Of a stretch of 64,000 nt of DNA, positions 18,780 to 64,000 are shown one piece after another. Numbering within the stretch: position 1 is the first letter of the stretch; the number at the start of each line of letters is the position of its first letter. This DNA comes from Psammoneis japonica (lineage: Eukaryota). The position numbers and the translations under genes were made by a program. The stretch covers positions 806,001-870,000 of the forward strand of contig QPGO01000010.1 in the NCBI GenBank assembly GCA_008632985.1, written 5' to 3'. The notes under the pieces are model-generated. The model did not search any database. It was not told the DNA's origin and saw only the letters and a list, made by a program, of their open reading frames with translations.

Positions 18780-21509
18780 GTTCAAATGTTGCAACAGTAT
18801 ATTAACAACAACCGCCATGAGCACTGGCACTGGGCACTGAGCACTGAGATACCATAGGGCCCTAGTACATGATGAATGCTGAGGATGGACAGACGGCATG
18901 CAAGGGCGAACTCGCTCGCTCGCTCGCGTCGCTCGCTCATTCACTGCGATGCTGGCTGCTCGCTGTGGTAGACTAGCCCCACGCAAGCTACAGGACAGTT
19001 TTGGCTGCTGTTTTAGCATGTACAGCAGGGCCCTACATGCCCTAGAGTGGCTGTGCTTGGCCTGTTGTCTTGCCGATGATGTGACAGGAACCGATTCAAT
19101 GTCTGCCATGATGGTCGCAGGGTCTTTTGTTGCAAAGATGCTCGCAAGTCGATCACGTGAAATGACAGCAGAGCAACACGGCAATCAAGAAAGGGTGGCC
19201 GCCCAACACCCACCAAAAACTTCCAAGCACGTTGTGATGACCACACTTTTTTGAGCTGCTTCCACTGTCCCCACCTCTTTTTGCTGTCCTCAATCCTTTC
19301 ATCTTGTTTGCGTTGTCCCTCATTTCCTCTTCCCTGGAATTTGCACTCTCTGACGATTCTCTGGTTTCCAGTGAGTGCTGCATCTTCTTTCTCCAGTGAG
19401 CTGGTCTTGTTTGTGCTGGCTGTTTCCTTCACCACTGTTGTTTGCAGCTCCAGTGGGGAGTGTCATGTTCTTTGCCAATTGCCCCATCCACAACAATGGG
19501 TGGGGCATTTCCCATGACTGCTGTGTGCAGTGCCCAGCATTGTCTCCACCGCCACATCTTGTGCGCAGCAGTTTCCATCTGCTCTGCTGCATCCACCCCT
19601 GTCACTGCTGTCTGAGCATTGCCATCTGCCACATCCACTGCTTCCACTTCTTCTTTTTTCACCATGTGTCAGCAGCAGCTGCCTCAGTCATGTTGATCAC
19701 AACACTGCAGTCTGCGGCCGGCGAACTTGTGTTTTTTGTCAATCTCCATTGCAGCAGCAACTGCTGCCATGTTGCTCCTGCAAGGCAACACTGATGTGAG
19801 AAAGAGCAGCACACATGCCATGTGCCGCCAACCACTGATTTTGTGCTCACCTTCCCCTGGAGCATTGCCGCTCTCAGCATCGTGCCCGCAGCTTGTGTTG
19901 CTGTCTTTTTCTGGCTTTTCCACCACGTTGGCCATCAGTTGACACCTCACTTCTTCCAGCTGCTTGGTGCTTGTGTCTTGTTCACACTGTTGCTCCATGA
20001 CCATCATGCGTGCTGTTGTCAGTGCGGCCATGGAATTCTTGTGAATCTTTTTCACCAAATGGGCGTCATCACCCAATCCTGAAAATGCATTGTGCAACAG
20101 TTCTGGCACTTGTCACATGCAGATGGGTTCCATGGCATGGCATGGCATGACATGCCAGTTGAGCACCTGCTTGCTTCTGCCACACACCTTGTCCAACAGA
20201 CCCTGCTTGACTGAATTTGCAATCCCGGAAAAACAACCAGCTTTGTGTGTGCTGCCATCTTTGCCTGGCACAACCATGATTTGAAAGTTGTTTTGTTTCA
20301 TGTGGGCCTTTTGCACCCCCACTGTCAGTGTCTTGCATGACTTGGCTTGGCCCACCATGTGTTGCACCTGCTTGAAAAATCTTGCTGCAGCTCCTGCACA
20401 GTCATCTGCCTTGATGATGCAGGTTGCTGTCCATCATGAATGCTGCCTTGAGACTCTTGAAATTCAACACAGGTGTCCCATCATCCATGTTCTTCACACC
20501 AGATTTGTCAGCAATCACAGGCATGATTGCACGCCACGCACTGTTGAGCTGGCGACAGTTCTTGCAGCATGCCTCAATTGTTGCTTTCTCTTGATTCTGC
20601 TCCTCTTCTGCAACCACTTGCTGGTGCATGGTGTCACACACCCAAGACACATTTTGGCCAGCATTGCATTTTGGCCTGGATTTCACACAACTTCTTGGTG
20701 TGAACTTTGTGGTGTTGTTCTGTGCTGTGGGTGTTGCACTGTGGCAATGGGAAGCAGCAAAGAATTCTCCCACATCCCCCTGGGGAGACTCAGCCAGTGG
20801 ATGGAGATTGCGCTGCCATGGACGTGGGAACATGGTGGCTCGTCATTTCCACAGAGTGCTTTCCTGTGCACTGCTTGAAGACAACAGCACATGCGCACAA
20901 TGTGGCGACAATGTGAGAACACCCCTTGCCATCTGTTGCCAGTTTGGGGGCAATGACATGTTTGCAACATTTGTGACTTGACAATGTGCAGCTGCATTTT
21001 GTGCTCATGCTCACCCGCCACATTGTTTTGCGTGTGTTCCTTGCAGACACTGTCTCTGTGTTGTTGTTGTGGGCTGCCCTGCAAGCAATTTTGTTTTGAG
21101 GTCATTGCCATTTTTTTGTGTGACGTTTGAAATGCTGTGGCTGTCATTGCGCTCTGTGGTCACAGCGCAATTTCTGTGCATCCTCAGCCCCTTCTGATGC
21201 ACCGCCCAGGCACCGTGCAAATGTTGCTCAAAGAAATGTTGTTTTTTGTTGCCACAGTTTCTTGACTCATTTCACAGGCACACTTTCACATTGATGTGGC
21301 ACTTTGAATTTTTTGTTTGATCATCTCACACTCAAAGCCACCGTTGTGGCACCAGCCCAAATGGCCAAAAAATGTGGTCCCGTGCTGACCACATTTGGCA
21401 ATGACCCCAGTGACCACATCACATTGCATCGCAGTGCACCTCTGTTCTTGTCCACAATGCAGCCACAGGCAGCAGGGTTTTCCCTTGCACTCAGCTGCCA
21501 TTTGTGATG

Positions 21510-21512
<3 letters not shown>

Positions 21513-21598
<86 letters not shown>
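21513..21598. repeat. (TG)43 microsatellite
   Basis: Perfect dinucleotide run. Confidence 0.97.
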
Positions 21599-21600
<2 letters not shown>

Positions 21601-22942
21601 ACATCATGCATTGTTGTCATGCCATTGTCTGGAGCAAAAATCCAGCTCAAATGCAGAGAGGCAAAAAGCACTGGAGTGCCTTGACCCAATCACAAAGCCT
21701 TGATGACTCAATTTGTGATGGAAGTGGCAATGGAACAATCAACGTGGCAACAAACAAAACACAGCAAGGTTTGGCACAGGGTTGGCAGAGATTTCTTGGG
21801 ACAAAAACCTCTCCCACCTTGAGCTTTTGAGAAGGAAGGACACTTTTCTTGTGGCCATCACCAACAACGCAGCTGCAGAAGATCCTTCTGACAACGCATC
21901 AGAAATTGTGCACCTGATGCCACACAGGGGGGGTGCCAAAATGCCACACAGGAAAGCGCGGTTTGCTGCAAAACAACAGCTCATTTCGCAGATGATTGCA
22001 ACGCCGGGGGGGGGGGGGGGCAATGTGAATGACTTGCCAATGGAGCGTGCATCAGATTTTGTGTCATTTGGTGAGGATGCCATTGGGTGCAAGAATGACA
22101 TTTAAACTGCTTGAGTGGGCAGTCATGAAAATGAAGATGCGCCAGCAGCGTGTGATGAGCCCACATCGGTGCCAACAATCTTGTTGATGATGGTCATGAT
22201 GAGTCCAAAAGAACAAACCCACAAGGTCAGGGAAAAAATGGATGGAGACATTTTAGAAGAAGAAACGTCCTTGGGCAACAAAGAGACGTCAAAACTGGAA
22301 ACACCCAACAATGAGTGAAACCAAAAAATGTCAAGAAACCTTCCCAAAAAGTGCAAGCCAGAACACATGTGAAATGTTTTGATGCTGGGGATGGCACACT
22401 CACCTCTCAATTCATCCACTCCCATTGAAAGCGCAAAGGAGGCAATGCTGGAGACAAAAGGCTTAAAAAATGTGGGCAGGGATGCAGTGAGAGGTTTCTT
22501 GCAACCAAACAACCTGTTTGGTTGATGTTTTCATGGCATCCAATTGTGGCAAACAAGGGCAATGTCAACTCTCCACAACACATGGATGCACATTTTGGTG
22601 GCCTCCATCATTTGGAAATTGGACAGCCTCTCAGATGCCAAATGAGCTCCAGTTTTGAACAGACAGCATGGGGCCCTTGCAACTCACCACCATTTTGGCT
22701 CAGTGAACACTTGGTGCAAGGCGATGTTTTCAAACACAGCATTGTTGGATTTGGACATGCCAGCAGGGCACCACTCCTGAAGGACAATGGGTCAATCATC
22801 CTTCCATTTGACAAAGAGGTGGCCACCCAAAATCTCAGCATGAAGCACCTGTGTTGTTTGCATTGCAACGCTGTGCATTTGAGAGAATCCAAGTTGCCAG
22901 GAAAGAACAATCTGTTGAGATGAATGCAGAGATTGGACCCAG

Positions 22943-23393
22943 TGCAGCATGCATGCAGACAAAAGGTTGTTTTTGTCACGCCCTTTGTGACATTTAAAGG
23001 CTGCAACACGTCGCCGTGACACATTGACTCTTGTCAGCAGCTGTGTGTTGCACTCCTCCCCATGCATCGCGCGTCCATGCGGCTCTTTACCAACGTGCAC
23101 TGACACTGCACGGTTTTGGCGGAACAGTGTGGGTGCGCACGAAGGAACACACAGAACTGCACAAAGTTTTGCGCGTTCGACAGTGATCAACGTTGCTGCA
23201 GACAACTCCCACTCAGGGTTTCGAACCCCTGGCCTCCTGCCCAATGGTTGCGATGAACCACTCCGCTGTGAATTCATTCATGATGCAGCATGCATGCAGA
23301 CAAAAGGTCATTTTTGTCACACCCTTTGTGACATTTAAAGGCTGCAACACGTCGCTGTGATGCATTGACTCTCATTGGCAGCTGCACATTGCA
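22943..23393 (-). mobile_element. Non-autonomous miniature LTR retrotransposon (TRIM), 451 bp
   Basis: 110-bp TG...CA direct repeats at 22943-23052 and 23284-23393; 4-bp TSD CCAG (22939-22942, 23394-23397); minus-strand PPT GGGGAGGAG abutting the LTR at 23053-23061. Confidence 0.85.
23203..23276 (-). other. tRNA-derived segment (Pol III A/B boxes) inside the TRIM
   Basis: Minus strand CAGCGGAGTGGTT (A box if CA<-TA) and, about 30 nt later, CAGGGGTTCGAAACCCTG (T-arm/B box hairpin); anticodon arm not recognisable. Confidence 0.5.
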
Positions 23394-25749
23394 CCAGTGC
23401 TTTTTTGTGAAGTTTTTGACAAGAACAACCAACCAGAGTTGCCAACTTGTTGTGCTGCAACTCAGCAGATGTTGCTGCAGAAATCTAAACTTGGTCAACA
23501 TGTGAAGAAGGAACAGGCCAAAAAAATGCTGGACACTGAATCTGTTTGCATTGCACAGCTGTGAAAGAAGCCAAAACCTCTTTCAACAAGCAAGACAAAG
23601 AAACAGCATGGCTGCAAGTCCAGAACACCAGCCAATGAGGAGAACATGGGGCTGCAACGAGCAAATGTGAGTCCAGTCATTCATCACTGGTGACGAGTCA
23701 CAATGACTCACAATGCATGCACCCCTCATCTTTCCAATGTGCCTTTCCTTGTCACCAACCATCTTCCAATGAAATGCTTTGCCAATGATGCACAACCAAG
23801 CACATTGTTGATCCCCCTCCCCCGCTTGCATTTGTGGTTGAATCACAGGAATTTTTGTGACAGTGCTGCTGTGTCCATCAACAACTCTTGCACTGGTTTA
23901 GAAGATGAAAGCAAGATGTGCTGTTTGCAATGAAAAACTGAGTGAGCACTCATGGAATGAGGCGCACAGCCCAAACAGGGAAACTTTGGTTGCCATGAAC
24001 AAGGAGATTGACAAAGAGATCTGGAGCTCCTTTGGCGCCATTGATGCAGGCTGGGTGACAACATTGTGCTCCGCAAATGCAATCAGCATGGCCTTGTCCC
24101 TCTGCAACAGAATTTGCACATCAATGATGCAACCCACTCCATTTCAAGATGCATCTCCAAACTTGCATGCATTGAAAAGCACCCAGACAGAGCTGCACAT
24201 TGTCAGTTTGGCACGCACAACTCAACTCAGCAGCACACAGCAACCACAGCACAAGAATTTTGCAGACTCACATGTGTTTGACAACGCCCAAGGAATTGGT
24301 GCTCACAAGAGATTGCAGTCATCTAGAAAACCGAGACAATCCATCACTGCCAACTGTGGTCAATGTGGACTCTGTTCTTGCCAGCAATGGAAAGCGATTG
24401 CTGGAAGAGCTCTGTTCCATCATGATGAAGTGGAGCACCCCACCAAGACTCAAGGAACACTTGCATCACCAACTTGTTGTTCTCCAGTCAGTGTGCCCAG
24501 TCTCTTGAGTGCACAAACTTGCCAATGAAGGGGAAAATGAAAGCAAAAGACAGCATCAACAAGCTGAGTTTGGATGTCCAATCAGCTCTTGCAGAAGCGC
24601 CACAGTCCACACATGTTGCTCTTGCCAACATGACAGGGAAAGGAATGGCATGTTCAAGGATCATTGGGTGCCAAAGGACCCACTGTGCTTGGAAGAACAA
24701 CAAGATTTTGAGAAGGCACTCAGCACAGGAAGGAGCAGAGGTTGTGTCAGAGCATTGTTTTGAGATGCTTGCCATGAACATGACTTGTGTTCTTGGTGAG
24801 GAATGGGGGGGCACATTGTGGAAGAAATGCACAGCTGCAATTGATTGCAAGGCAGGCTGTGGCACAACAATTGATGTGCCCAAGGTGGACACAACCACGC
24901 AACCTCATTTCACTGGTTTGAGAACAATGATCTCTGCGATGATGACAAAACAAATCAGATGGTTGAGTTGCTGGAAAAAAGGCACAAACAGTTGGCAGAG
25001 AGTGATGCCACAGAAGAAAAATGAAGGGAACATTTTTTGTGGGTGAGGAGGGAATCACAAAATTCTTGCTTGGGCTGCTGTGTTTTTTTCAAATGCACAA
25101 AGGAACATTTGTTTTTGAAACAATGGTGGATGCCAAGAACTTTGCACTGCACCTTGCAGCAGTGGGCAGCTGATTTTGGTGTTTCTGGCTAACAATGGTT
25201 TTTCAATCACAGTCAAGTTTTCAAGAAATCAGTTTTTAGACCACTTTCTCACCCTCCATGAGGTGCACAAGATGCATCCTTCCCTGTGCACAGCAAACTG
25301 TGCAACTTGGAAGCAAAGCACACAAGCCACAATTTGAAAGAAAGAAAAAGCAAGCACTTGAAATGGCACAGCTTCACCAGCAACAAATCATTGCAGAGCA
25401 CATTCTGATGTCATCTCTTCAGTGGTGGGCAATCATCACTGGGTTTTGGAGTTTGATTTGGGGGCCACTGGCTTTTGGCATTGGGCTTTCTGTTGGAGTT
25501 TCCAAAGAGTGCCGCTCTGGATTCCAAGTCACTTCACATGCATCACAGAGCAAACAAAGTGGCTGCCCTGTTTCCATGCTCATCCCAGCTGCCATGCAGG
25601 TTTCCCAAGTGGCTTTTTTGCAGCAACCAAAAAGGGTTGGTGTTCATGAGTGCACAACAAGCAACACAAGATTTTTAGAAATGGTCAACCCAACTTGTTG
25701 AATGAACTGAGGTGACAGGTGACAAGCAGCATGCTGCTGCTCATTCCCA

Positions 25750-27800
25750 GTGCCATTCACCATGCAAGTCAGGTGCATGAGCCATTGGGTCCAATCACAC
25801 TCCATTCAGTCAGACCCAACAACAATGCGGCATGCCAGAAGAGCTGGTGGGTCAGCCACCTCATGCACAAATTCTCCACTTTTGTCAAGGAGAGGCAAGA
25901 AGAACATGCATTCCCTCACAAGACTTGGGTTGTTCTTGAGATTTTCCCACTTGTCTGTGGAAAATTGCATTGCATGATTGAGTCCAAGGCACTTGGCACC
26001 AACACGAGTGGTCATTCGGTGCAGTTGGAAAACAACCTGGTGCATGTCACACTTGCAACAAGGAGCTGTGTTAGACTCAACCAATGCAGTGATGAGATTT
26101 CTGTTTTTGTGCAAGAGTCCTCCACAACCGCCCCAGCCATCAAATTGCCATTTGCCACAGCTTCTTGGAGAAAGCAGCATTGCATTCCCACATGCAGCAT
26201 TGGTCATCAAGCTTTCTGACAGGCTGTGGTTCTTCAACATGGAAGTGTGTTTGCAGCACACTGAGAATGCAAAAATTGATGATCATTTCCTGCTGACAGC
26301 AACCACCCTTCATGCAGCATTGTTGGAACAACTGGCTTGAGGTGGCACAGAAATCCCTCCACCCTGCCACTCCCTTCCCAGCACAAATGCAAGGGACCAA
26401 AAATGCTGGGTGCATTTGGAAGATTTAGAAGAGACAGGAAATTGTTCTTGCCTGTGAAAAAGCAGTCTTTGGTGACTGTTCTTGGCTTGTCATCAAGCAC
26501 ACAGAGCAAAGTGACAAGAACATTTTGATTTGCTGGTCCATCTCTTTCACAATCTCTGGTGTCATCTGGTTGGCTGGCTCTGGTTCCCAGTGCACTTCAT
26601 GCTCCATGTCTGCCAGGCAAAGCAGTGCCTCTCAAACAACTGATCTGCCCTCTGAGTTTGCTGTTGCTGTGCTTCTTGCACTTTGACCATGGACAGCAAA
26701 ACTTCTGAGCCTTGGGCAAAGTTGTTGCCAAACCTGCAACAGAAGGCAGAGTGCATGTGTTGCAACCTCAACCAGTGTCTGACAAAATCCTTCATGGTTG
26801 TCTTCACAATGCCTGGAATCTGCCAGAAGATGCACCATGATGTTGAGGAAAATGAATGTGTCAATGCCCAAATTCCCATGGAATGTGGCACAAGTCACCC
26901 ATGCCATCAGCATCAACACAGTTTGCAAGGTGGTTGATCTCATCACCGCTGAATGAACAATCCTTCAAAAACATTTTTGTGGTCTCTGTTGTCCACTCCT
27001 CTGATGAACACAAGTCTTTGTGGTGATCTCTGCTGCCTCACTGAACAAGTTGAAGTTTTGCATGTAAATGGACTTTTGCAGATCATTCCCTGGGTCAGAT
27101 GCAGCTGATGCTGGATGTGAAGATGGTGTGCTGCGATCAAGCAGGGAAGCACCAGGACCATCCATGTCACAATCAGCACAGGAGCCGTTGGGGCAAGGCA
27201 CATTTAGACCATCAAGATGTCTCTCTCTGCTTGGAGTGGAGTGTGCATGTTGCCAACAAGCAACTGTGAAAGCAGGAGGTGTGAGTTGAAGATGAGAGCC
27301 TTGCTTGGGACAGTCTTGCAACATGGCAAGCAGCTCTGCTGCTGCTTGAACCATGGTGCCAGTCTTGTGACAGCAAAGTTGGTGAGGATTGCTTGGGTCA
27401 CACAATTGGTTGAGTTCATCATGGAAGCAACCCCACATCAGCTGATGGCCAGTCCTTTTGTTGCCAAGAGAAAACAAAAATGAGTTGTTGTTGGTCTGCA
27501 ATCAACCATCACAACTTCAGCATGCATTGAAGTGAGGCTCAATTGTTGGAAAGGGTGTGTGTCATCTGCCCACACAAACACTGGGAGAACTGGCACAGCT
27601 GATGGGGTGCCACTCAGTTGAGTGGCAGCAACAATTTGCTGTGCTTGCTCAGTCTGACAGATGGAGCTGGTTGCACTGTCCTCTGCTTTCTCCACCGGCA
27701 CAATGAGTGGTTCAATGTTGCGTGACAGTCCAAGCACACATGAGACAGCATCTGAAACAAAGAGTGGCATGCATGCCCATGCATGTCAATGCCAACAGGT
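25750..27800 (-). pseudogene. Decayed CMC/EnSpm(Plavaka)-like DNA transposase
   Basis: Ordered remnant motifs across frames: VFVWADD, LQDCPK, GIVKT, NFLSLLNLP...FGPLHLCWEG...EGF...KP; boundaries approximate. Confidence 0.5.
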
Positions 27801-29234
27801 GTTGGCAGATCAGCGCACATGCTGGCCCACTTGCCCCCCAGAGTGCATGAGCATGCACCTCTTATGATGTTGGTGAGTGCAGGGTGTGTGCAGACCATTG
27901 TGTCTGTTTCAGGCAGATTTGTGATGCTGCAGATGAAGCTGCTGGGTGGCCAATGCAAATGAGATGATGGAAGGAGCTGCACCATCATGGCTGGCTTCAT
28001 CATCTGATGAATGTTGCAACAATGACAGCAAATCATGCTGGTCATCTTAACTTGCTGGAGTGACCAGGCCACCAAATGTTCAACTTTGCTGCCCAAGTCT
28101 CCACTTGAATTGCCAACAAATCATGCCATGGGAGCACCCTCAATGTGAGAAAACAACAAGGGATCATCATGCATGAGCACAAATGGGGCAGGAGAAGAGC
28201 TGGCATCTTGGGTCACCAAGAGCCAATGGGTGGCATTCATGCCAAAAAAACCTGGAGGAACAGAGCCAACATTGTTGCCATCTTGTGAGGGGCCATTGAA
28301 TGATGAAAAATCACCATCTTTGAATGAAGCAGGGGAGGCAACAACTGTGCTGGCTGAAGCAAGAGCAGGGTGGGTGCAGCAGTGGCAATTTTCATTGTGG
28401 CAGAGGAGAGCACATTGCTGAGACCTTGAGTGAAAGCAACCCACAACTGGTTTGCAAAACTGTTGGCATGAGTCACAAGCAAGTGTGGCAAAAACACCAA
28501 GCAGATGTGGTGCGTCCCCCACAAAGAAAATGAAGAAACCAGGGAAAATCGCCAAACCCGCCAAGGTGCACTTCCCACTGGTGTCTGCCACATGTGTGCT
28601 GCAATTGGGACAATCTTCAAAATAATTTGGTGCATTGTGACTGCCAAGGCCCAGCAAAGTGCAGGAGAAACAGTTGGCATGAGCGACAGCCCAGAAGGTG
28701 GAGCGCCAGCATGCCACTAAGATCAGCATCAGAGCACGATGCCATCATGTGCATCACAGCAAAACACAGTGTCAGCCAGCAGTCCAGTGAGTTGGACACA
28801 TTGTGGGGTGCACTGGCAGCACAAATGGAAGATGTGTTTTCAAAGGGTTGCAGTGTGTGCATCACAGGCAACGGGGGTGAGGAAGCAGCAGGTCACGAGC
28901 TCCTCGCTGCAGGCAGGGGGGGTGAGTGGGGGAAGACTCTGATCCAGATGAGGGGCACACCACTGGTGTGGGGGAACAAGTGACATTTGTTGCTGGTGTG
29001 TGGGGAATGAATTTACTGGCAGGGCCCATTGCAGGTAAAATGCCAGAAATAAGAAATGAACACTGTAACAGGAGAGGGAACCAGCAATGGCGCATGCATG
29101 CAATAAGTTTGGTGGCGGAAAGCACGCGCGCTTGTATCCGGTAAGACCGCGCCCACAAAAAACTTGCCTCAGCCCTCATACCGTAGCCCTCCAGCATCAG
29201 CAACAAAAAACATTGAATAGGCCAACCGGTGTAT

Positions 29235-36395: not shown

Positions 36396-37967
36396 CTATT
36401 CGAATGGCAGCTTGGCATACTTTTCCTTCATACCGGGACGTTTGTCACGAAGCACCACCATGTTGCTTTGGAGTGACTTGGGCACAACCATGCCACCTTG
36501 CGCATGCCTGGCAATACGAGCATCATTCTCGGGCTCACCCGCTGTCCAAATGCGGCCAGGGCCTGTGGGTGATTTCTGACTTGCCCTGATTGCCTTTAAA
36601 AGCTTTCCCGCATTGGCTTCGAATGTTTTGAGAGGACACAAGCTTTCAATGTCAATGGCCAAGAAAAAGTGACCGAGTGGCATGGGGGCGGGTTTTCCGG
36701 TAGCACGATCCACTCCACACACCGCCTCTCCAAACGGTCCAGACTGGAATGCAGTACACAAGAGTTCCACGACAGTAGCCCATCCGTATCCTACGAAAGA
36801 AAGCAAGGAGAAAGATCCATTAGAAGAGTGCACCTGTGACTGGTTTGCTTATGTACAAAGTACGAAGCTTGACGACGTACCCTTGTATCCTCCCAACTTG
36901 TCTCCACCGCCACCCACGGGTGTCAAGGCGCACTTGCCAAGCACCATGTCACGCAAGATGCCTTCTGTATCAGTCCTTTCGATTCCTTCATTGTCAATGA
37001 CGGCACCGCGTGGTGTCGACTTGCCCTCTCGCGCGTACCGTTCAATCTTTCCGCGTTGATTGACCGATGTGGCGCAGTCAATGTTAAACTCAAATTCCTC
37101 GTCCGTTGGGATCCCAAAGCAAAGAGGATTCGTGCCTGGAAAGACGTAAGAATAGTGCAAAATGAATATTTAGAGAAGAGCGTTTCGTACAACCCCAATA
37201 GAGTTCGAGACAGAAAGCTTACCCAACATTGGTTCCACTCCAAAGGTGGGAGCAATCGATGGTCGAGCGTTGGTTCCTGTAAATCCAATACAACCTGCCT
37301 TGGCCGCCATGGAAGAGTAGTAGCCAGCAATACCATAGTGTGTCGAATTCTGAACCGCTACAAATCCAACTCCGTGCTTCTTGGCCTTGTCAATAGCCAT
37401 TTGCATAGCATATGGTCCAATGTATAGGCCGAGACCCAAATTGCCGTCCAGCAAGGCCGTTGTCTCTGTTTCCTTTACAACGTCAATAGGCTTGGATGGC
37501 CACAAGATGCCATTATCAATGCGATCACAGTATATTGGTTTGAGTCGTCCGAGACCATGAGAATCAATGCCCCTCCTGTCGGCTTCAATCAACACTTCTG
37601 AACACGTTTCCGCCCGATCTTCTGGAACTTCATACGACAGAAACACGTCCTTCATGAATTGCTTCATGAACTCAAAGTCAATAATGACATCCGGTTCTTT
37701 TTCTTTTTGTTTGGAAGGAAATTCCACTTCCACGCCATAGACTGACGCTCCAATGGCAAACACAACATCGGAAGCATCGGCATTTCCGCTCGTGGCAAAG
37801 GACTCGAGTGCCTCTTTGAGATTGGCACGGACTTGCGGATCCAAATGACCCCCGGGATTCTTTCCAATCAATTCGAGAATACTTTCACGAGACGACATGG
37901 CTGATGATGACGATGCAACCAAGGACAAGCAACAAGGAAACCAAAGCAACAAGCGCAACGGTTTCAT
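36396..37967 (-). CDS. Type 2 malate/L-lactate dehydrogenase family (Ldh_2) oxidoreductase with an N-terminal signal peptide (3 exons)
   Basis: EADRRGIDSHG, NSTHYGIAGYY, LGTNPL, IDCATS, GGYKG.G, GHFFLAID; introns 37222-37136 and 36880-36791. Confidence 0.88.
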
Positions 37968-38149
37968 GAGCCACTGATGTTGATTTTGTGATGGGTGATA
38001 GGTGTGATGATGTGATGGAACAAAAACAATAATCCAAAACACGTGGTGTCACTTGTACCACGGCCTCACGTAGATCCTACTTCCTTCGTACATCTTGGTA
38101 GACAATTTACGAGGAATGATCCATTGTCGGTCGACGATCAGACTAGCTA

Positions 38150-41100
38150 CAGCTTTCCCTGCAACCAACCTAAACGTCGTATTAATCCTACGTTACTGGT
38201 AGGAAAATTTATTTTTCATACAAAAAGCCACAGTAAAATCGCCAGCAGCGTTATATTTAAATCTTATCTATATTCTAGAGTTTTTTATTTACCTACAAAA
38301 AATATCTTTTCACCCCGCGAAAAGCGTCCTCACAATGAAACCCTTGTCAAAATCAATCGCACTGCGGTGCGTTTTGAACTCTTTGACAAGCTTTTCAATG
38401 GTCTCAAGAGACAAGGCTTCATGATGAACCTCTTGAGACACATCAGGTTGTGAAAGAACCATGTAAGCACAAATGCATCGTCGTGCTCGTCGCGAGAACT
38501 TTCGCATCCTGTCAGTCGTGAGTGCGCTTGATGACATTGATTCTCGTACCAACTCTCTAAAGTTTTGCTTTCCCCTCTTTCTTGACAAAGGTTGCAAACG
38601 ATAATGCTGCTTTGCCAGTCCCCAAGAACATTCAATGCCCTCCCCAGCCATTTCTGGGTGACACTTTGGCGTTCTGTCAATGGTCACACCCATTTTGCGA
38701 CCCATGGTTTGCAACAACGTCTCTTCGTTGACGAAATCATCGCAAGCAGCCATCAAGTGAAGAAGAGATGTTGACTTATTGATCTCTCCATCTTTGCCCT
38801 TTGCACCATCCACAGTGCATTTTCCAGGGTTGTTGGGATCAATCCATCCTCGCTCACACAAAATTTGCTTTGGTCCTTTCGGCTTGTTGACCCATCCGTG
38901 CTTCACCTTTTGAATGGTTTCTTCGACAGGTGTGTTGTTGCTCTTTGCCATGTCAATCAATTCATCCTTTTTCTTGCCCCTGATGTTCTTGATGTTCTTT
39001 TGTAGAAGCTTGTCAAAAATTTCATCACGCAGGAACTTCCGAGTTTCAGTTTGACCCTCGACAGGTGCGTCACATTTCTCAGCTTCTCGTTCTTCCGGCG
39101 TCATCCAGCATGGTCCCTGGTCTTCCTCACTGAATGCCATTGTTTGCACTTGTCCTGCAGACAACATGCCAACTGCTTCAGCATGAGGACCTGGAAAGCC
39201 CTCTTCCTGAAGAATCTCAGTGGGATGCATCTTGTTCTGACTGCCGCCGACTCCTGCGTTCATCGTGCGCTTGTTGCAGATTAGTCCGTCTGCTCTCTGC
39301 TTGTCGTGCCCGCAAGAATGATCAAAAAGGAAATGACAGTCAAATTGAGGATGCAGCACTTTCAAGCAATCCACGCAATCCTCCAATCGCACCAACATGT
39401 GGTTGTAATTCCAGCATCCGTCGCCATTCGCTCCACACTTGAACTCACGGATGAACGGACTTTTCTTCAACTTCGGCTCACGCTGCTTCTTGCTGAACAC
39501 TGTTTCTGCAGCTTCTTCATCAGTGTGGCATTTGCCTGCTCGAGTTTCATTCATCTCTCGGAGTTGCTCTTCCGAAATGTCTCCATCTCGAACAAGGCCG
39601 ACCTCTCGACATTGAAATGCAGACTGCATCACGCCTTCTCCATCATCTTTGGGCAGCAGCGGCCGCTCACCTTTGGGACCCGACCAGCTGCTTGTGCTCA
39701 GCAAGCATTGCTTAAAAACAGCCTCGTCCTGTCCAAATGTCATGACAGGCTTTACATTCGGATCCTTTCTCACACTTTCACTTCCTCCAAATTGCACGGA
39801 CAGCTTGGGCGCAAGGCTTGGATGCTCCGGGTCGATGACAGTGTCGACATGACACTCGACAAAATCTTCTCCATCAACTTGGCATTCATGCCCTGTTTTT
39901 GCTGGGAGAGCTTCAGCTTTGACAATGTCCATGGCAGTGGCTTTTGGAAGTTGCATCCAACGTGGGCATCGTTCTTCCATCATCAAGTGTCGACGGACCA
40001 TCGCATTCCGACACCTCACATTGTCGGGACGTTCATGATTGTCAACACAATGCATCTTTTTGTTTGGTCCATGCCGGAAACCAAATAGATTCATCCAGTT
40101 GGAAACTGCATTGGAAGAAATGCACAGTTGGTTTTCCCCGGTGAGCAATCCATGCTGATTCAGGAACTCCCGTTCCGACTCCAAGATGTCTTCCCTGTTC
40201 TTGCGACGGTCATTGTTCTCTCTCTTTAAGAATTCCGGGACAAGCACTTCGTGGAAGTGGTCTGTGGCCACCTCAGTGGAAAGTCGAGAAAGGTTTGCTG
40301 TCACAAACTCAATGAATTTCCTCTTCATCTTTGGATGTGCTTCAAATGTCGGTGGGTCTCCTTTTCCTTTTGGTCGGGGATGAGGAAAGGAGCTGAGATT
40401 CCTAAAGATGCGACACCAAGCAGCTGCGGTTTGGCGACTTTTTACAAAGTTAACACCTGCACCGCTGAGGTCATTGATTGCATGCTGACAGCAGTCAAGC
40501 CATGCAGTGTTCCTTTTTGGCAGCTTCTTCAACACATGGTCAAGCGCCATCGCAAGATGCTGGCATCTCAATCGAATCACATGAGCGTCGTTGGGTGTGC
40601 ACAGGTTGTCAGGGTCGCCTCCTTCGATCACTTCTTTCCATCCATCATGAAAAGCAAATCTAGAAGTCAATTTGTCTGTCTGTTTCTCAATTGCCTTTTT
40701 TGCATCCTCTCCATCATCTGCATTGAACAGGTTCCGCACGGTCATGTCATCCTAGAAGGCGCCAACAACAGCGGTCAAATCATCGGCAGGCATGGCATCA
40801 TTCTCAGGAGTGTCATCTTCATCAGCACCACCATCATTGGATGATTTCTCCTCTGTTGCAGAGGACTCTAGCAGTTCTTTCCTTTTCTTTTTCTTTCGCT
40901 CGTTTTCCTGCAACGTCTGTGTGCACTCGTTTGCGTCACACCCCACTGTTCTCTTGCTGGAGCCGGCTCGAGTTTCTACTTTCTTGTTGTGCTCTTCAAC
41001 AGTCAACATCACACGCCTGAGATCATTGATTGTTGAGGGCACATGCCTTGGCAATTCTTGCTCTTTGCAGGAACAGTGAGCCACAACAGACGGCTCTCCC

Positions 41101-41595
41101 TTCGGTCGGAACTGCTTTCGGAAAACCCCGCCATGGTTCTCAGACGTGTCCTTGTCAATGTCTGGAAATGGAGATCCAACTCTGCTCAAAGCACTGTTCA
41201 ACTTCTTGGCATTGAAGTTCAAATCTTTGTCAATTGTGTGGGCCTCTTTTGTCACATGCACAAAACAGTTCGCCTCGATCCATCTGCATTGGAACTTCGG
41301 CATCTTGAACGCATCCCTGAAATGCGAAGTGACAATGCCAGTCGGTGTCGACCGAGACGCTCTGATCGCATTGCCTTGTGACATTTTGATGGGTGTTTGC
41401 TGTCAAGCTGTGCAGGGGGATCAGAGAGGACTCAGCAGCAAAACCACAAAAAACGCCGATTCCACCAGCGCCATTGTCTCGTGCTTTTTCTCGTGCTTCA
41501 AGATTGTTGCGATGACGTCAAAGCGGACACGTCACAAAAATCTGGCATGTCCTGCACAAATTCTACGGCGTTTAGGTTGGTTGCAGGGAAAGCTG
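38150..41595 (-). mobile_element. IS630/Tc1/mariner-like DNA transposon, 3446 bp, full length
   Basis: 32-bp TIRs CAGCTTTCCCTGCAACCAACCTAAACG(T/C)CGTA at 38150-38181 and 41564-41595 (1 mismatch); TA at 38148-38149 on the left flank, CA at 41596-41597 on the right. Confidence 0.9.
38310..41384 (-). pseudogene. DDE transposase (~1024 codons) with one in-frame TAG at 40752-40754 and severe Tyr depletion
   Basis: The 210-aa and 811-aa ORFs share a frame; VDNHERPD, GQDE, FLFDHSCGH, TPKCHPEMAGEGIE.SWG, KTHR motifs; only 3 Tyr in 811 aa. Confidence 0.85.
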
Positions 41596-42172
41596 CAGAG
41601 AAGTGCGTGCGCGCAGTCAGTGGCACGCAAAGACACAGCAGACATCTTCGAATTTTGCCAGAGTGAGGCAGGAAGGCTTGAAGCATCCTCCCACTGCAAA
41701 TGCGTTTGAGACAGGGAGGAAGACTTGTGAACTAGAATGACACACAACTGCAACATCCATCTCTTCTACTGGCAGCTCCACCACCGTCCGTCATGTGCGG
41801 CAAAAAATTGTGAGGGTTTACGGTTGCGGGTTTCGATTTAGAGGATTTCAAAAAAGCTGAGTCTGAGTCAGTCGACTCGGGATTCAACAAACCCCGCTTC
41901 CCTTTCAATCTTGTGACGGCGTTCTGCTCAGGTTTGACAAGACCGAATCCAAGACTGAGTATATTCAAATCTTCATTTTCATAGACCATTTGGCGGGAAT
42001 TCCATCAATTTTACATACGGATTCAAAATATTTCATTATCGTTGAAGAACACGAGCACTCTATTTGAGTTGGGAATTTTTGTTATGTTTAACTAAATAGT
42101 TGAATGTAGATATTAATTTTATTATGCTGAAAAATTGGAATGGCCCGGTTTTTGTAATCATCAACTTCTAAT

Positions 42173-44241
42173 ATGTTCAAATATCATTTCAAGACTCAAC
42201 GCCTCATAATATTTGCGCGAGCAAATTCTACACAGGCCTCAGAAAAACTCGCACAACGCTCATTCCAGCGCACCTTTGCCGCGGTGCAAGTCTTGTGTGT
42301 AATTGTGTTGACCATGACGTACTCCTCCAGCAGCAGCAAGAGCAAGGGCAAGGGCAAGGGCGGCAGCAGTAGCAAGTCCTCAAAGGGCTCGTCAAAGAGT
42401 AAAGGTGGAAAGAAGAGCTCAAGCAAAAGCGAGAGCAGACACAGCAGCAGCAGCAGTGACGACTGGCAAGCGAAGGGCAAAGGCGCCTACTCGTCTTCTT
42501 CATCTTCTTCCTCCTCGCACTCATCCAATTCCTCCTCCAATGGCTCTTCCTCGAACGGAAAGGGTGCAGTCGTTCCATCGCTTCCGCCTCCGCCGACTCC
42601 GCATCCGCCCGCACCAACACCGCCGCCGCCAGTGCCGACTACGCCGATACCGCCACCGCCTCCACCGGTTGTTGTACCGACCCCAGTTACCAATCCGAAT
42701 CCCCCAGCGCCTACCCCACCGACAATACCAACGCCGACTACGCCTACAGAACCGACTTCGCCTACTCCACCAACTTCACCTACTCCACCGACAATGCCAA
42801 CGCCCACTACGCCTACAGAACCGACAATGCCAACACCGACTACGCCTACAGAACCGACGTATCCTACTCCTTCGGTGCCGTCGTCGCCGACTCCCTCGGG
42901 ACCAGTAACTGAACCGACGCCCACGGAACCGTCTTCACCGACGCCCTCGGGGCCGTCTTATCCGACACCCACCGAACCGACGGATCCCACTCCATCGTAT
43001 CCAACCGAGCCTACCCCTCCGCCACCACCGCCTACAGAGCCAATCCCATCAGATCCGGTAACTGCACCGTCTCCGACCGATACAACGTCTCCCACAACAT
43101 CTCCGTCCGAGACTCCATCCTCCTCTCCCACAGAAGTGCCTTCTTCGACTCCAACGGCCTCGCCTACGGTGCCGACGTTTAACGTCGTGTCGGGGATTGA
43201 TTGCAGTGCCATTGCCGACGGCACGCTTGATCCTCCACCCGAGAGCCTGTCCGTCGTGGCGGAAGCAAACCTTTCCATCATGAACGGAGTTTCAGCAGAA
43301 GAAGTGTTTGACTTGGTGGAACTCAAGTTTCAAGACGGTCTGGACGAGTTGGCCTTGTGTGCTACACAGTCCACGACGAGACGACGACAACGACAATTGG
43401 AACAAGTCACAATTACCCATGTTGTGGTTGGAGACATGGAAGACGATGGAGGTGCGTTGTGATTTTTGGCGCGAATTCTGTTTGGCGCGCGAAAATTCAA
43501 AATCGTGCTCACTCACATCAATTCTTATTTCTCTTTATCAATACAGGCTCGTGCGTTGTCCCTGATGACATTGAGGATGCTACATGCTATTCGACCGATA
43601 CCAATGTGGACGTGTACTTTATTTCGGACGATGCGCGCCGACGATTCCTCGTGGAACGTGCGGATATCCCACAATTGATACAAGACAAACTCAATGCCCT
43701 CGATTTCAATGTTCCAGGACTGGCGCACATGTCGGGTGTCACGGCAACAACCGCGGGCAATGGCGGCGGAGTAACAGGTGCACAAGAAGAAGTGACCCGC
43801 GAAAACAAAAAGGACGACGGCCTGGGAGCCGGTGGGATCATTGCCATTGCCGGAGCCGTCGCGCTGTTGGCTCTGCTCTTTGCCTGTTTTATAGTCAGAC
43901 GACGAAGACGCTCTAGTAGCTCTGTCCAATCGAGCTTCTTTTCTTTGGATGATCAAAAGGACGACTTGGACGGCACCTTTTACGAAGACGACGTGGAAGT
44001 CGTTGGTGATGGCTCGACGATTGCGTCCGAATGGACCGGAAGAAAGAATGACGGAACCTTTCCCAATTCCAATGTCCACCGATGCAACTCTGCCACGTGT
44101 GACATTTGTGAACGCCAACGAAAAAATGACATTACCTTCATCAGCACCGGGCCCGTACGATCGCTCCCGCGACCGAGTAGTCAGGGTTTCTCACGCGATT
44201 CGAGTCGGGAGTATGGAGCAGAAGACTCTATCATTCTGTAA
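42173..44241 (+). CDS. Ser/Lys- and Pro/Thr-rich single-pass membrane (cell-surface/frustule-type) protein, 2 exons; start uncertain
   Basis: SSKSSKGSSKSKGGKK region, PT repeats, DCSAIADGT, RXL motifs, TM GIIAIAGAVALLALLFACFIV-RRRRR, cytoplasmic VHRCNSATCDIC; intron about 43453-43546. Confidence 0.78.
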
Positions 44242-62249: not shown

Positions 62250-64000
62250 TCGAACATTCGATCGAATCGATGGAATGTCGTGTCCAGGCCACGGGCCAGG
62301 CAGGAGGTTTTCCTGCAGTGCTCGACTCTCGTCATGAACGTGCCTTGCACTTCTCACCCAAAAGAGCAAACAGAGAAAGATCGCAGCAGAGTGAGAAAAA
62401 AGCCACAAAAAAGAAAAAACAACCCAATGACAATGCTGCACTCTCTCTTTTTCCTTTCCCAATCTCTCTGTGCTCTGGCTTTGCTTGCCTGCTCTTGGTG
62501 CTGCCATGCTTGGGTGCAATGGGAACTGCCTCAGCTGGAGCCAGCAGCCCGCAGAGAAATCTTGTGCATGGACAATGAACAAAAAAGGAGAAAAACTGGC
62601 CAACTCAACAAAAGCACGGCCCTTGTGAGATGTGCCTTTGACTTTCAAGTGCAGGTGGTGCCTCCCAACTTGCTTTGTGGCTGGCTTTGCCTTGTGCCAC
62701 ATTGTCTGTGCTTTTGATGACCCCACCCCCAGTGGCTTGTGCAGCAGCTGTGGTTTTTGTCAACTCACCTGTTTTCTTGCTGACATTTTTGACATTGACA
62801 CACTTTGCCAAACACCTTGCCAACCCAAATTGCCAGCTGCTGCATCTGCCAATTTACAAGCAGAGGAGCTGCTGGCTGCTGCTGTTTGTGCCAGCATTCT
62901 TGAGAGTGTTTTGCACTGCTGCTGGGGCTCCATTCCTGCTGCAGCTGCTGCTGCTCAGCATGTGCTGCCCACCAGTGCCTGTGGCAATGGGTGGTGGGGA
63001 TGATGAGATGATGTGCCAGAACAAGTGGGGCCTTCTTGTCACATCTTTTGTGCAGTGGTTTCTCAGCCTTCTTGTCCTGGCGGCACCTGTTTGTGTGTGT
63101 GGGAAGCATGAAGCACAAAGCATCACACAGGGGGCAAAGGTGCAGGGCAAGCTCCTGTCCATCCACGATCTTGCTTTTGAGGCCTTTTGCTTCTCTTTGG
63201 GACACTGATTTGGTGCCATGTGATGTGCTGTGCACTGCGTTTTGCTGCCAACAAGAAGAGCAAAAATTAAAATGAAATCTCCAAAAAAGAGATCTTCTCA
63301 TCCTCTCCCTCCCTCTCCACATGCAAAAATTTGCTTGCAACAAGGAGTGCTGAGGGCTGGAACAGCACACCATCTTGCTGCTGCAGGGAGCAAAGCTCTT
63401 TTTTTCTTTCCCAAAAAAAGGAAGCATGCACAAGAGAGAACTCCCCACAAAAAGTGAGAGTTTCTTGCTTTTTTTTGAGGGGGGGGGTTCATCTCAAGCA
63501 ACAAGTGTGCCACCCAAGAAAATGTGCAAGTGTGTGCAAATGTGCAGATCTGTGTCTTTTGGCTGCCTGCCACCTGGGCACCAAATCTCAATCTTTCTTG
63601 TCAAAGCTTGAAGGGGGGGGGGCTGGGATCATGTGCTTCTTCTCAAACTGTCACAACATTTCTCAGCACCCACGAGATGGCTCAGCCATCATTGTGACCT
63701 TGTGGCAGCCAGAGCAAGAACTGTGCAGCAGAGTGGCAGCAATTGATCTGATGTGATCTTGCTTGTTGTGTTCTTTTGGCAATGTGAAGAGGAGCACTTG
63801 CAGGCAGCTGGCTTGTGTTTGATTTTGGACAGAGCAAAAAATCGGCACAGCAGGTTTCCTCTCTGCAACTGTGGAAAAAGCCCCAAAAGAACAAAAATGT
63901 GCCAAAAATGCAAACTTTGCCACTGCATCTGTGCCATGTGTCAAATTTGGCCACACATTTCAGCTCCATGCTTTTGCCTTGGTGCTTGCTTCAGAGGTCT
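62250..64000. other. TpA- and CpG-depleted degenerate repeat-like domain (runs off the window)
   Basis: About 2 TA in 1750 bp; TG/CA-rich. Confidence 0.8.

Follow-up and report, generated by a model that had tools for sequence, protein, structure and literature searches.

Probable DNA-Level Erasure of TpA, with Retention of CpG, in a Tc1/mariner-like Transposon Copy of the Diatom Psammoneis japonica

Main Finding

A transposon copy in the 64,000-nucleotide stretch of Psammoneis japonica DNA analyzed here (hereafter the window) has lost about 85% of its expected TA dinucleotides, whereas its CG observed/expected ratio (o/e) is 0.72 as against a family median of 0.74; the proposal of an earlier note on this DNA, that TA loss outruns CpG loss, is thus upheld. 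The explanation that we favor, and consider probable as a whole, is that the element is a dead, multicopy, Tc1/mariner-like cut-and-paste transposon, inserted at a TA upstream of a gene of the Ldh_2 family, in which TpA has been changed to CpA or TpG by a DNA-level process acting over a tract. The same explanation holds that the transposase ORF would have been under selection until recently, with little else changed since, and that TA is erased much more quickly than CpG decays, the one loss not depending on the other. The features on which these statements rest are collected in table 1.

Table 1. Features of the Transposon Copy and Its Surroundings (positions in the window)
Feature	Position	Strand	Basis
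Neighboring host ORF, Ldh_2 family	37170-38042	-	Pfam PF02615, E 1.9e-56
Left flanking dinucleotide TA, putative target-site duplication	38148-38149		read from sequence
Whole transposon copy	38150-41595		bounded by terminal inverted repeats
Left TIR, starts CAGCT; 3' end of element relative to gene	38150-38181	+	
AT-rich 3' noncoding segment, escaped conversion	38182-38309	-	
TA-erased tract inside element	38304-41563		
Transposase gene, 1024 codons plus TGA stop, one internal TAG	38310-41384	-	
5' noncoding part of element, fully TA-free	41385-41563	-	
Right TIR	41564-41595	-	
Right flanking dinucleotide CA	41596-41597		read from sequence
Single-copy right flank with conversion signature	41598-41800		

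Structure and Classification of the Element

The terminal inverted repeats (TIRs) agree at 31 of 32 positions, as stated earlier, with one stretch of 27/27 being exact, and each retains both of its TAs (at 38171 and 38180 on the left, at 41564 and 41573 on the right). In the relatives L043 and L053, TA is found on either side of the CAG...CTG termini and, since the left flank here is also TA, the CA on the right would represent a TA target-site duplication turned into CA. No contig spanning across the insertion, corresponding to an empty site, is present among the DNA-run joints listed, and a search with the TIRs retrieved no further copy or MITE within the 64-kb window. The neighboring Ldh_2 ORF has its 5' end toward the left end of the element, which has been spared.

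The attribution to the Tc1/mariner-like type follows from the fold of the transposase, the TA target duplications of its relatives and the CAG termini. The transposase has seven protein homologues with 35-46% identity, and the fold assignment rests on the VIA-align comparison of the AF2 model predicted for one of them (P0006, pLDDT 83.4). The closest structures are Metnase (Z 13.0, rmsd 3.5, 172 aligned), Mos1 (Z 12.6) and Sleeping Beauty (Z 11.2), with 172-190 residues aligned across the three, followed by integrases with Z of at most 9.9. Foldseek retrieved nothing from the PDB at E <=1e-3, its best transposase row being Mos1 at E 0.059. The predicted structure points to an RNase H-like DDE/D catalytic domain of the mariner/Tc1 type; the Atlas feature neighbors are DDE_3 clusters (score 0.90). 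Pfam gave no match at all on the ORF and no DDE_3 or Transposase_1 match on eight members at E up to 1; what these eight members show are unrelated matches and weak N-terminal ones to HTH_Tnp_Tc3_2/HTH_33, all below Pfam significance. The near-invariant residues D42, D176 and E391/E398 (P0006 numbering), assigned by motif, are putatively catalytic.

The element resembles Tc1/mariner transposons in its left TA flank, CAG-starting termini, TIRs and catalytic fold, but its protein has about 1000 aa, and a long insert separates its second D from the E. About 134 aa lie between the first D and the second, and the second D is about 215-222 aa away from the conserved E run, in contrast to the approximately 34-41 aa that separate the second D from the third D/E in classical Tc1/mariner elements. 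A cut-and-paste element with TIRs involves no RNA intermediate. The transposase family seems to be largely confined to diatom-like environmental sequences.

Loss of Tyrosine from the Transposase

The minus-strand ORFs at 38310-40745 (811 aa) and 40752-41384 (210 aa) share one frame which, in agreement with the earlier note, is intact apart from one TAG (40752-40754), with neither a frameshift nor an internal TGA. The TAG derives from TGG (Trp): other copies carry C at position 40753 (minus-strand TGG) in 86% of the covering depth, and Trp (in YWDS) occupies the column in the 4/4 homologues that cover it. Internal TGA is absent from the coding frame as against 9-64 in the five other frames of the tract, which argues that the ORF was selected until recently. 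This absence is the informative part, for the open frame in itself is weak evidence of youth because changes of TA to CA or TG cannot make stop codons.

Along this frame Tyr is found three times in 811 aa, as claimed, and 3/1024 (0.29%) in the read-through, whereas it accounts for 2.58-4.06% of the residues of the seven homologues (binomial p = 4e-14 against the family median of 3.85%). All five motifs that had been quoted as lacking Tyr are present, and the homologues do have Tyr at the aligned places: HCVDNHE corresponds to YYVDGHE, FKCGANGDGCW to FEYG..EGYW, LHPQFD to LYPxFD, GIECSWG to GIEYxWG and RARRCI to RARxYI. At the 19 columns with Tyr in at least 4/7 homologues, the copy has His in six, Cys in six, Tyr in three and other residues in four, so that both strands have been hit equally. 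Of the 142 columns without variation among the homologues, the copy keeps the residue in 2/9 of those with Tyr and in 122/133 of the others (Fisher p = 5e-6); it also retains the D, D and E of the motifs.

Metagenome contigs contain 166 relatives of the element, and the family norm was taken from 53 metagenome relatives having ORFs of at least 500 aa. Their Tyr content has a median of 3.85% (q1-q3 3.38-4.28), with a median TA o/e of 0.58 (0.53-0.64) and a median CG o/e of 0.74 (0.66-0.84). The outcome that the earlier note named as refuting its reading, intact active family members with equally little Tyr, was not obtained: at least 2.9% Tyr is present in 50/53 of these long-ORF sequences, which also show TA o/e of at least 0.41, and the three Tyr-poor exceptions are all TA-depleted themselves. 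The comparison supports the view that Tyr poverty is mutational rather than a family trait. The metagenome relative L072 combines TA o/e of 0.06 and 0.2% Tyr with retained CG; TA is lost and CG kept likewise in L047, L049, L052 and L067. The TA-depleted copies from microbial mats (L047, L049, L052 and L072) are 60-70% identical at the DNA level, too distant for substitutions to be classified.

Limits of the Converted Tract

Both the site specificity of the change and the limits of its tract are visible in dinucleotide composition. Between 38304 and 41563 there are 19 TA as against 212.4 expected (o/e 0.09) and 596 CA+TG as against 400.3 (o/e 1.49). CpG is retained in the same interval, with 136 CG for 188.4 expected (o/e 0.72), and the CDS by itself contains 127 CG (o/e 0.72), in line with the previous statement that CG is common in the element. 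The lack of TA extends to each of the three codon phases, and over the ORF span the TA o/e is 0.10, compared with 0.56-0.63 where the window carries host genes. The 5' noncoding part of the element (41385-41563) contains no TA for 11.6 expected, and its CA+TG o/e is 1.56. The CG o/e of the host-gene stretches is about 1.0; had the lineage started from such a host-level value, up to 28% of its CpG would have been lost.

The left edge of the tract, at 38303/38304, is sharp and lies 7 nt past the stop codon. On its other side, the interval 38148-38303 (GC 0.31) has 20 TA for 18.3 expected (o/e 1.09) and belongs to an island, 38043-38303, with TA o/e of about 1.0-1.1. The right edge lies beyond the element: positions 41598-41800 have 2 TA for 10.8 expected (0.19) and a CA+TG o/e of 1.58, and a contig of 4334 bases, at single-copy depth, matches them without any difference. 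The significance of this TA deficit is marginal (Poisson p 0.06 with a baseline of 0.56, 0.009 with a baseline of 0.8), and it is only suggestive of conversion leaking beyond the element by about 200 bp on the right. In the ORF that follows (42173-43462), TA o/e is 0.61. The converted tract, running from 38304 to about 41800 (about 3.5 kb), is offset from the element, on its right side probably so.

A switch of strand along the element was considered and rejected. At 18 ancestral-TA sites, CA on the plus strand predominates 9:2 to the left of 39850 and TG on the plus strand 5:2 to the right; the Fisher p of 0.049 depends on a post hoc split, and no switch of this kind is visible in the bulk CA/TG skew (0.047 versus 0.069).

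Sister Copies

Other copies of the element were compared in one DNA run (X1), which may be the assembly's own sample, by aligning 295 contig pieces; two further runs, X2 and X3, yielded no piece that aligns. The summed depth is 190-1040 inside the element versus about 63 in its flanks. Among 524 differing places, the best-supported 40 correspond to 35 events, to which the following counts refer: TA here and CA/TG in other copies in nine, CA/TG here and TA in other copies in three, and double sites at which this copy has one of the products CA and TG and other copies have the other, in five. The TA-type events thus total 17/35, compared with only 5/35 for transitions of the CpG type. Read from the sequences, the conversions are copy-specific DNA mutations, because at these sites sister copies have either TA or the other of the two products.

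Sister copies also have CA/TG at six TAs of the segment that has been spared here (38182-38309). A left end that is unconverted in this copy and converted in its sisters is unexplained by a purely element-directed process.

TpA Loss and CpG Loss

The losses of TA and CG are separable, as had been suggested: their o/e values are uncorrelated among the 53 relatives (r = 0.06), and the 80 family loci examined include both copies with TA lost and CG kept and copies with CG lost and TA kept. CG loss without TA loss is seen in L013, L046, L074 and L078, which belong to other hosts. Scanning of the window by 500-bp segments found CG-low composition in 0/80 of the TA-normal segments, and ten TA-low segments with normal CG; every CG-low segment is also TA-low. 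The CG-poor blocks that the earlier note considered old extend over about 1.7 to 10 kb, with a CG o/e of 0.19 and both CA and TG at 1.9, and the TA-low tracts with normal CG are small insertions adjoining genes. CpG decay by deamination of 5-methylcytosine, the putative cause of CG loss, also ends in TpG and CpA, and its signature is present in the CG-poor blocks but absent from the element, whose CG o/e lies within the family range given above.

The further claim that these states form a three-stage time series was not borne out, the evidence being cross-sectional only, with old blocks that contain no recognizable coding remnant or in-window copies. No credible Pfam match was found in 74 open frames of at least 90 aa from these blocks, which gave three Pfam rows, all unrelated and under the threshold, with no domain of a transposon among them, and self-BLAST of the window returned eight short repeats, none linking the old blocks. 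DNA that has lost CG could belong to another class of chromatin or methylation instead of representing a later stage.

Proposed Mechanism and Known Systems

In the mechanism that would account for these observations, a copy arises and lands at a TA, and conversion follows afterwards, at least partly in situ, as argued by the different flanks (TA on the left, CA on the right) and by the converted single-copy right flank. A:T-to-G:C transitions on either strand would turn TpA into CpA or TpG; Tyr codons would then become His or Cys in equal numbers and stop codons could not arise, with CpG, like every other class of site, remaining essentially as is normal for the family. The tract spares the 260-bp island at the junction with the upstream region of the neighboring gene and probably runs into the other flank, a pattern that a locally bounded mutator, defined by chromatin or by a guide, would fit better than a strictly element-defined one. 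The most likely chemistry would be enzymatic deamination of adenine at TpA, as proposed for Bigelowiella natans; for the targeting cue and a role in genome defense, we likewise argue by inference. The process is not ongoing on this copy, because the new TA within the TAG stop has not been reconverted.

B. natans provides the only published precedent for the signature that we found, in a 2026 preprint (Mettrop et al., bioRxiv, 10.64898/2026.01.13.699255); a full-text literature search returned no description of TpA erasure in diatoms. In that alga, A>G/T>C mutations at TpA only were measured directly on integrated foreign DNA in mutation-accumulation lines, and TpA-depleted CDS of this organism are enriched in DDE-endonuclease and reverse-transcriptase domains (10.64898/2026.01.13.699255). 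The likeness extends to the products, with CpA+TpG rising as TpA falls, and to the confinement of the changes to foreign or mobile DNA, the ordinary genome being unaffected. The activity in B. natans is described as episodic. There are also differences, for B. natans is a chlorarachniophyte and the present host a diatom; its target is integrated viral DNA, which still holds many TAs (3.3% of dinucleotides; 10.64898/2026.01.13.699255), and ours a Tc1/mariner-like DNA transposon; and there a rate was measured, whereas here a fixed, near-complete erasure (TA o/e 0.09) is deduced by comparison. How the process relates to CpG loss and where its tracts end, both dealt with here, are matters untreated in the main sections of that preprint.

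Fungal repeat-induced point mutation, or RIP, changes C to T at CpA to give TpA, so that TA is enriched, the product is AT-rich and stop codons are created. Its signature was considered and rejected here, for TA is erased, CA/TG are enriched and the tract has a GC of 0.48. RIP has been described in Neurospora and other ascomycetes (PMC7296669, PMC2621366). It is nevertheless similar in that dense transitions in a dinucleotide context are confined to mobile or repeated DNA, kill transposon coding and leak into adjacent unique DNA. The direction is opposite: in the element TpA becomes CpA or TpG, GC is gained and no stops are made.

If real and enzymatic, the process would endow diatoms, which are major primary producers, with a transposon-killing mutator opposite to fungal RIP, a kind of process for which the sole report to date is a 2026 preprint concerning an alga that is not related. 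Since the element involves no reverse transcription, the change has to take place on DNA; and since CpG is untouched, it does not arise as a side effect of cytosine methylation. For base editing, a naturally occurring enzyme able to turn A into G at TpA within chromosomal DNA would, if it exists, be of direct interest. Affected elements lose Tyr and drop under Pfam thresholds and, because the process cannot make stop codons, long open frames survive in them, so that annotation may take them for intact genes of unknown kind or fail to recognize them as transposons. Dating from TA or from total divergence will overestimate the age of such copies. A wider reading, which we advance tentatively and are more inclined to doubt than to accept, is that diatoms possess a DNA-level, TpA-specific, adenine-deaminating defense that inactivates a fresh insertion of any transposon class before CpG decay or ordinary substitutions can register, with no dependence on the methylation of cytosine. 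It would act on a locally bounded chromatin domain and not on the element itself, sparing promoter-like AT-rich DNA by an active gene and leaking on the other side, and would be widespread in benthic diatoms, as suggested by environmental members of the transposon family that have likewise lost TA.

Alternative Explanations

The long frame, 1024 codons open apart from one TAG, and the conserved D, D and E motif residues would also suit a functional protein of a lineage in which low TA and low Tyr are native, owing to codon usage or selection against TA/UA. This is very improbable given the composition of 50/53 long-ORF relatives, and given that invariant Tyr is lost at 7/9 columns versus 11/133 for other invariant residues; moreover, TA is absent in all codon phases and in the 5' noncoding part, sister copies keep TA or have the other product, and the 3' end of the element itself has TA o/e of 1.09. 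A different chemistry, in which a TET/JBP-type enzyme oxidizes T to 5-hydroxymethyluracil (5hmU) at TpA, with mispairing or faulty repair leading to T>C, would leave the same signature: TA is its own reverse complement, so that T>C and A>G on the other strand look the same, and the outcomes of His and Cys are equal (6:6). 5hmU is enriched at TpA in some algae, which counts for this chemistry, but it pairs normally with A, and near-complete, exclusive T>C is not expected from it. The sole experimental precedent proposes (without testing) adenine deamination with an ADAT2-like candidate; we regard thymine chemistry as unlikely. The UA context matches the 5' U preference of ADAR-like enzymes, a neighbor preference raised in the Discussion of the same preprint, and RNA-level A-to-I editing could have been fixed through a cDNA copy. 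This origin is contradicted for the present element, a cut-and-paste DNA transposon with TIRs, TA duplication and a Tc1/mariner-like DDE fold that has no reverse-transcription step; both strands are hit equally (His 6, Cys 6), the signature extends to the 5' noncoding part and probably to the single-copy flank, and we give editing next to no credence. No more credible than editing is a sequencing or assembly artefact, in which a modified base at TA in repeats would be systematically miscalled as G or C. Run X1 may come from the same sample as the assembly, in which case their agreement is not independent, and the sequencing technology of both is not on record; yet independently assembled metagenome relatives (L072, L047, L049, L052, L067) show the same combination of lost TA and kept CG, different X1 copies have different products at the same site, and the effect stops sharply 7 nt past the stop codon with 20 TAs intact next door.

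The states of TA and CG may also not be stages in time, a possibility to be taken seriously even if we lean against it. CG loss would then characterize DNA of another class, for instance extensive heterochromatic blocks that are methylated, or reflect a slower CpG side activity of the mutator, and an isolated insertion between genes would lose its TA and yet never its CG. This would suit the large size of the CG-poor blocks and the small insertions beside genes that make up the TA-low, CG-normal tracts; neither Pfam (0/74 frames credible) nor inter-block repeats (none) give an age for the blocks, and the Mettrop preprint refers to ADAT2-type enzymes able to deaminate A as well as C in DNA. An ordered series, in turn, predicts the nested pattern that is found, CG-low being always TA-low. 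The 500-bp segment at 23001, which lies inside the big block and is TA-low yet CG-normal, would fit a younger insert. Also against this reading is the CG loss without TA loss of L013, L046, L074 and L078, which implies that CG loss needs no TA mutator.

Tyrosine Loss and the Family Norm

The read-through product of the transposase gene contains 3 Tyr in 1024 residues (0.29%), as compared with 2.58–4.06% in the seven homologues retrieved by protein search (35–46% identity, E 1e-116 to 7e-166). This bears out the tyrosine poverty described in the earlier note, and the five motifs quoted there are all found in the element protein, each aligning with a Tyr-bearing motif of the homologues. None of the other seven sequences compared is as rich in His (3.81%) or Cys (3.52%). 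At the 19 alignment columns having Tyr in at least four of the seven homologues, the element shows His (6), Cys (6), Tyr (3), Glu (2), Phe (1) and Gly (1); His and Cys outcomes being equal, both strands must have been hit. Where the homologues show no variation (142 columns with at least six present), the element retains Tyr in 2/9 cases versus 122/133 for other residues (Fisher p = 5e-6).

To define the family norm, a scan of metagenome contigs returned 166 relatives, 80 of which were kept, and 53 with a longest open frame of at least 500 aa provided the reference values: median Tyr 3.85% (q1–q3 3.38–4.28), TA observed/expected ratio (o/e) 0.58 (0.53–0.64) and CG o/e 0.74 (0.66–0.84). Relative to these medians, approximately 85% of the TAs in the element have been lost while CpG is unchanged; CpG loss would amount to at most 28% even if the level of host genes (CG o/e approximately 1.0) is taken as reference, and the G and C gained in conversions would themselves lower CG o/e slightly. 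The poverty of the element in Tyr and TA is the product of mutation, not a family trait. As to the refuting condition set in the earlier note, namely that intact members be equally Tyr-poor, 50 of the 53 relatives have at least 2.9% Tyr, a result that favours the finding, and the three Tyr-poor ones (L047, L049 and L072) have TA o/e of 0.33, 0.30 and 0.06 with CG retained at 0.66–0.79. Together with L052 and L067, they form the 5 of 80 loci that have lost TA but retain CG (TA o/e 0.06–0.33, Tyr 0.2–1.6%, CG 0.62–0.79); the family has therefore undergone the same erasure in one further environmental host at least, L047, L049, L052 and L072 all deriving from one microbial-mat metagenome assembly.

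Coordinates and composition of the features discussed (o/e, observed/expected)
Feature	Position	Strand	Remarks
Element with terminal inverted repeats (TIRs)	38150-41595		ends start CAGCT
TIR pair	38150-38181, 41564-41595		31/32 nt match; outer 27 nt identical
Left flanking dinucleotide	38148-38149		TA
Right flanking dinucleotide	41596-41597		CA
Transposase frame	ATG 41384 to TGA 38310-38312	minus	1024 codons
Sole in-frame interruption	40752-40754	minus	TAG
Internal tract	38304-41563		TA 19 vs 212.4 expected (o/e 0.09); CG 136 vs 188.4 (0.72); CA+TG 596 vs 400.3 (1.49)
Right flank, single-copy	41598-41800		TA 2 vs 10.8 expected; CA+TG o/e 1.58
5' 500 bp of Ldh_2-family ORF	37540-38042		TA 6 vs 36.4 expected (o/e 0.16); CA+TG o/e 1.35; CG o/e 0.95
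CG-poor blocks	1751-3500, 19100-29000, 62250-64000		TA o/e 0.01-0.04; CG o/e 0.08-0.19; CA and TG ~1.9
CA/TG here, TA in other copies	39699, 40125, 40674		
CA versus TG between copies	38949, 39593, 39706, 39719, 40990		
L049, after stop	3064-3260		13 TAs at +61..+193, vs 6-7 in 600 bp before
L052, after stop	4976-5180		12 TAs at +14..+200, vs 6-7 in 600 bp before

Conversion of TA to CA or TG cannot create stop codons, because the only TA-bearing codons able to give TGA are already stops; hence, an open frame alone is no evidence of youth. The informative fact about the frame is not its openness but the absence of internal TGA (0, versus 9–64 in the five remaining frames). The single TAG derives from TGG, which occupies its position in 86% of the covering depth of other copies, and Trp is present at this column in all four covering homologues. 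It represents a new TA that is still unconverted, so the process has not been continuously active on this copy.

Copy-Specific Changes

Sister copies of the element were read from one public DNA run, which may be the assembly's own sample. The 295 contig pieces placed on the stretch with likeness of at least 80% fall into identity classes of 99% or more (76), 95–99% (70), 90–95% (82) and under 90% (67), and their summed depth is approximately 63 in the flanks versus 190–1040 inside the element, indicating that the family is multi-copy. From the 40 best-supported of 524 differing places, 35 between-copy events were obtained: TA here with CA or TG elsewhere (9), the reverse (3), double sites with CA versus TG in either direction (5), CpG-type transitions (5, with CG here in 2 and elsewhere in 3) and other changes (13). 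The double sites are the mark of one ancestral TA converted independently, and the conversions are copy-specific changes on DNA. At the 18 sites of known ancestral TA (38477–40990), CA predominates 9:2 as the plus-strand product to the left of 39850 and TG 5:2 to the right (post hoc split, Fisher p = 0.049), while the bulk CA/TG skew shows no such switch.

Relation of TA Loss to CpG Decay

The earlier note proposed a series of three stages, in which TA is lost fast and separably from 5mC decay. When 128 windows of 500 bp were classed by TA and CG state, 26 were low in both, 10 were TA-low with normal CG and one TA-low with middling CG, whereas none of the 80 TA-normal windows was CG-low. This nesting fits a loss of TA ahead of CG. 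Depletion of TA shows no correlation with that of CG in the family (r = 0.06), and five loci (L013, L046, L074, L078 and L055) show the opposite state, with CG o/e of 0.0–0.26 and TA o/e of 0.45–0.64; in their hosts CpG decays and TA is not erased. The two processes are therefore separable, and this part of the proposal holds; the putative stages in time are read from a cross-section of the window. In the CG-poor blocks, no recognisable protein domain was found in 74 open frames, nor any block-to-block similarity inside the window. One segment within the large block (23001–23500) is TA-low with normal CG and is possibly a younger nested insert.

Type of Element and Known Systems

No Pfam family matches the transposase, be it the element ORF or other members. 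The catalytic half of the homologue P0006 was modelled with AlphaFold (41-sequence alignment, pLDDT 83.4), and VIA-align matched the model to the Metnase transposase domain (Z 13.0, rmsd 3.5, 172 aligned), Mos1 (Z 12.6) and Sleeping Beauty (Z 11.2), with retroviral integrases at Z 9.9 or below; Foldseek by itself gave no match at E 1e-3 or better for this model. Near-invariant residues are D42, D176 and E391/E398 (P0006 numbering), Atlas neighbours comprise one diatom cluster plus DDE_3 clusters, and two relatives with flanks, L043 and L053, have TA|CAG...CTG|TA ends. On this evidence, the element is a Tc1/mariner-like cut-and-paste transposon, albeit with an unusually long insert between the second D and the E run. 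RNA editing fixed in the genome is excluded, since a cut-and-paste element has no reverse-transcription step.

A preprint on Bigelowiella natans describes 231 new mutations in two viral regions integrated into the genome; 230 of these were A>G or T>C, and every one of the 230 lay at TpA. It proposes an ADAT2-like adenine deaminase as a candidate only (Mettrop et al., 10.64898/2026.01.13.699255). Apart from this 2026 preprint, full-text literature searching returned no description of a TpA-erasure signature. The process in the diatom element is of the same kind, but has gone nearly to completion and targets a DNA transposon; it adds independence from CpG and the limits of the tract. Fungal RIP acts in the opposite direction.

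Limits of the Converted Tract

The TA-free tract starts sharply at 38304, 7 nt past the stop codon. TA is at expectation over the element's leftmost 156 bp, which take in the TSD, the TIR and the AT-rich 3' non-coding part (20 vs 18.3 expected), and over the next 105 bp of host sequence (7 vs 6.9), while the 5' non-coding part of the element has none (vs 11.6 expected) and normal TA returns from approximately 41950. The depleted right flank, together with CA where TA is expected at the right end, points to in situ action on a domain that is shifted relative to the element. Six left-end TAs are converted in sister copies, so the left segment is not intrinsically immune. Accessible DNA upstream of the neighbouring Ldh_2 gene might set the boundary of the converted domain; alternatively, the left end may have been spared through survival of mobilisable ends or through guide-limited targeting. 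Dense TA right after the transposase stop is also seen in the TA-depleted environmental relatives L049 and L052, the same pattern as at 38148–38303.

The 5' end of the Ldh_2 ORF is TA-low and its remainder near host level, which could reflect either conversion that leaked past the spared island or simply the codon usage of an N-terminal part that is not conserved. For the BRAP2-like host ORF nearby, 458 matches reach E 1e-30 or better; six of the 120 rows listed name an organism, in every case a diatom (Seminavis, Nitzschia twice, Phaeodactylum, Bacillariaceae sp. and Mayamaea; 44–52% identity), and by this criterion the host is a diatom. Contig L049 carries a perfect 19-nt inverted repeat at both ends (25–43 and 4193–4211), which is not a transposon end and resembles a library adaptor that was not trimmed before metagenome assembly.
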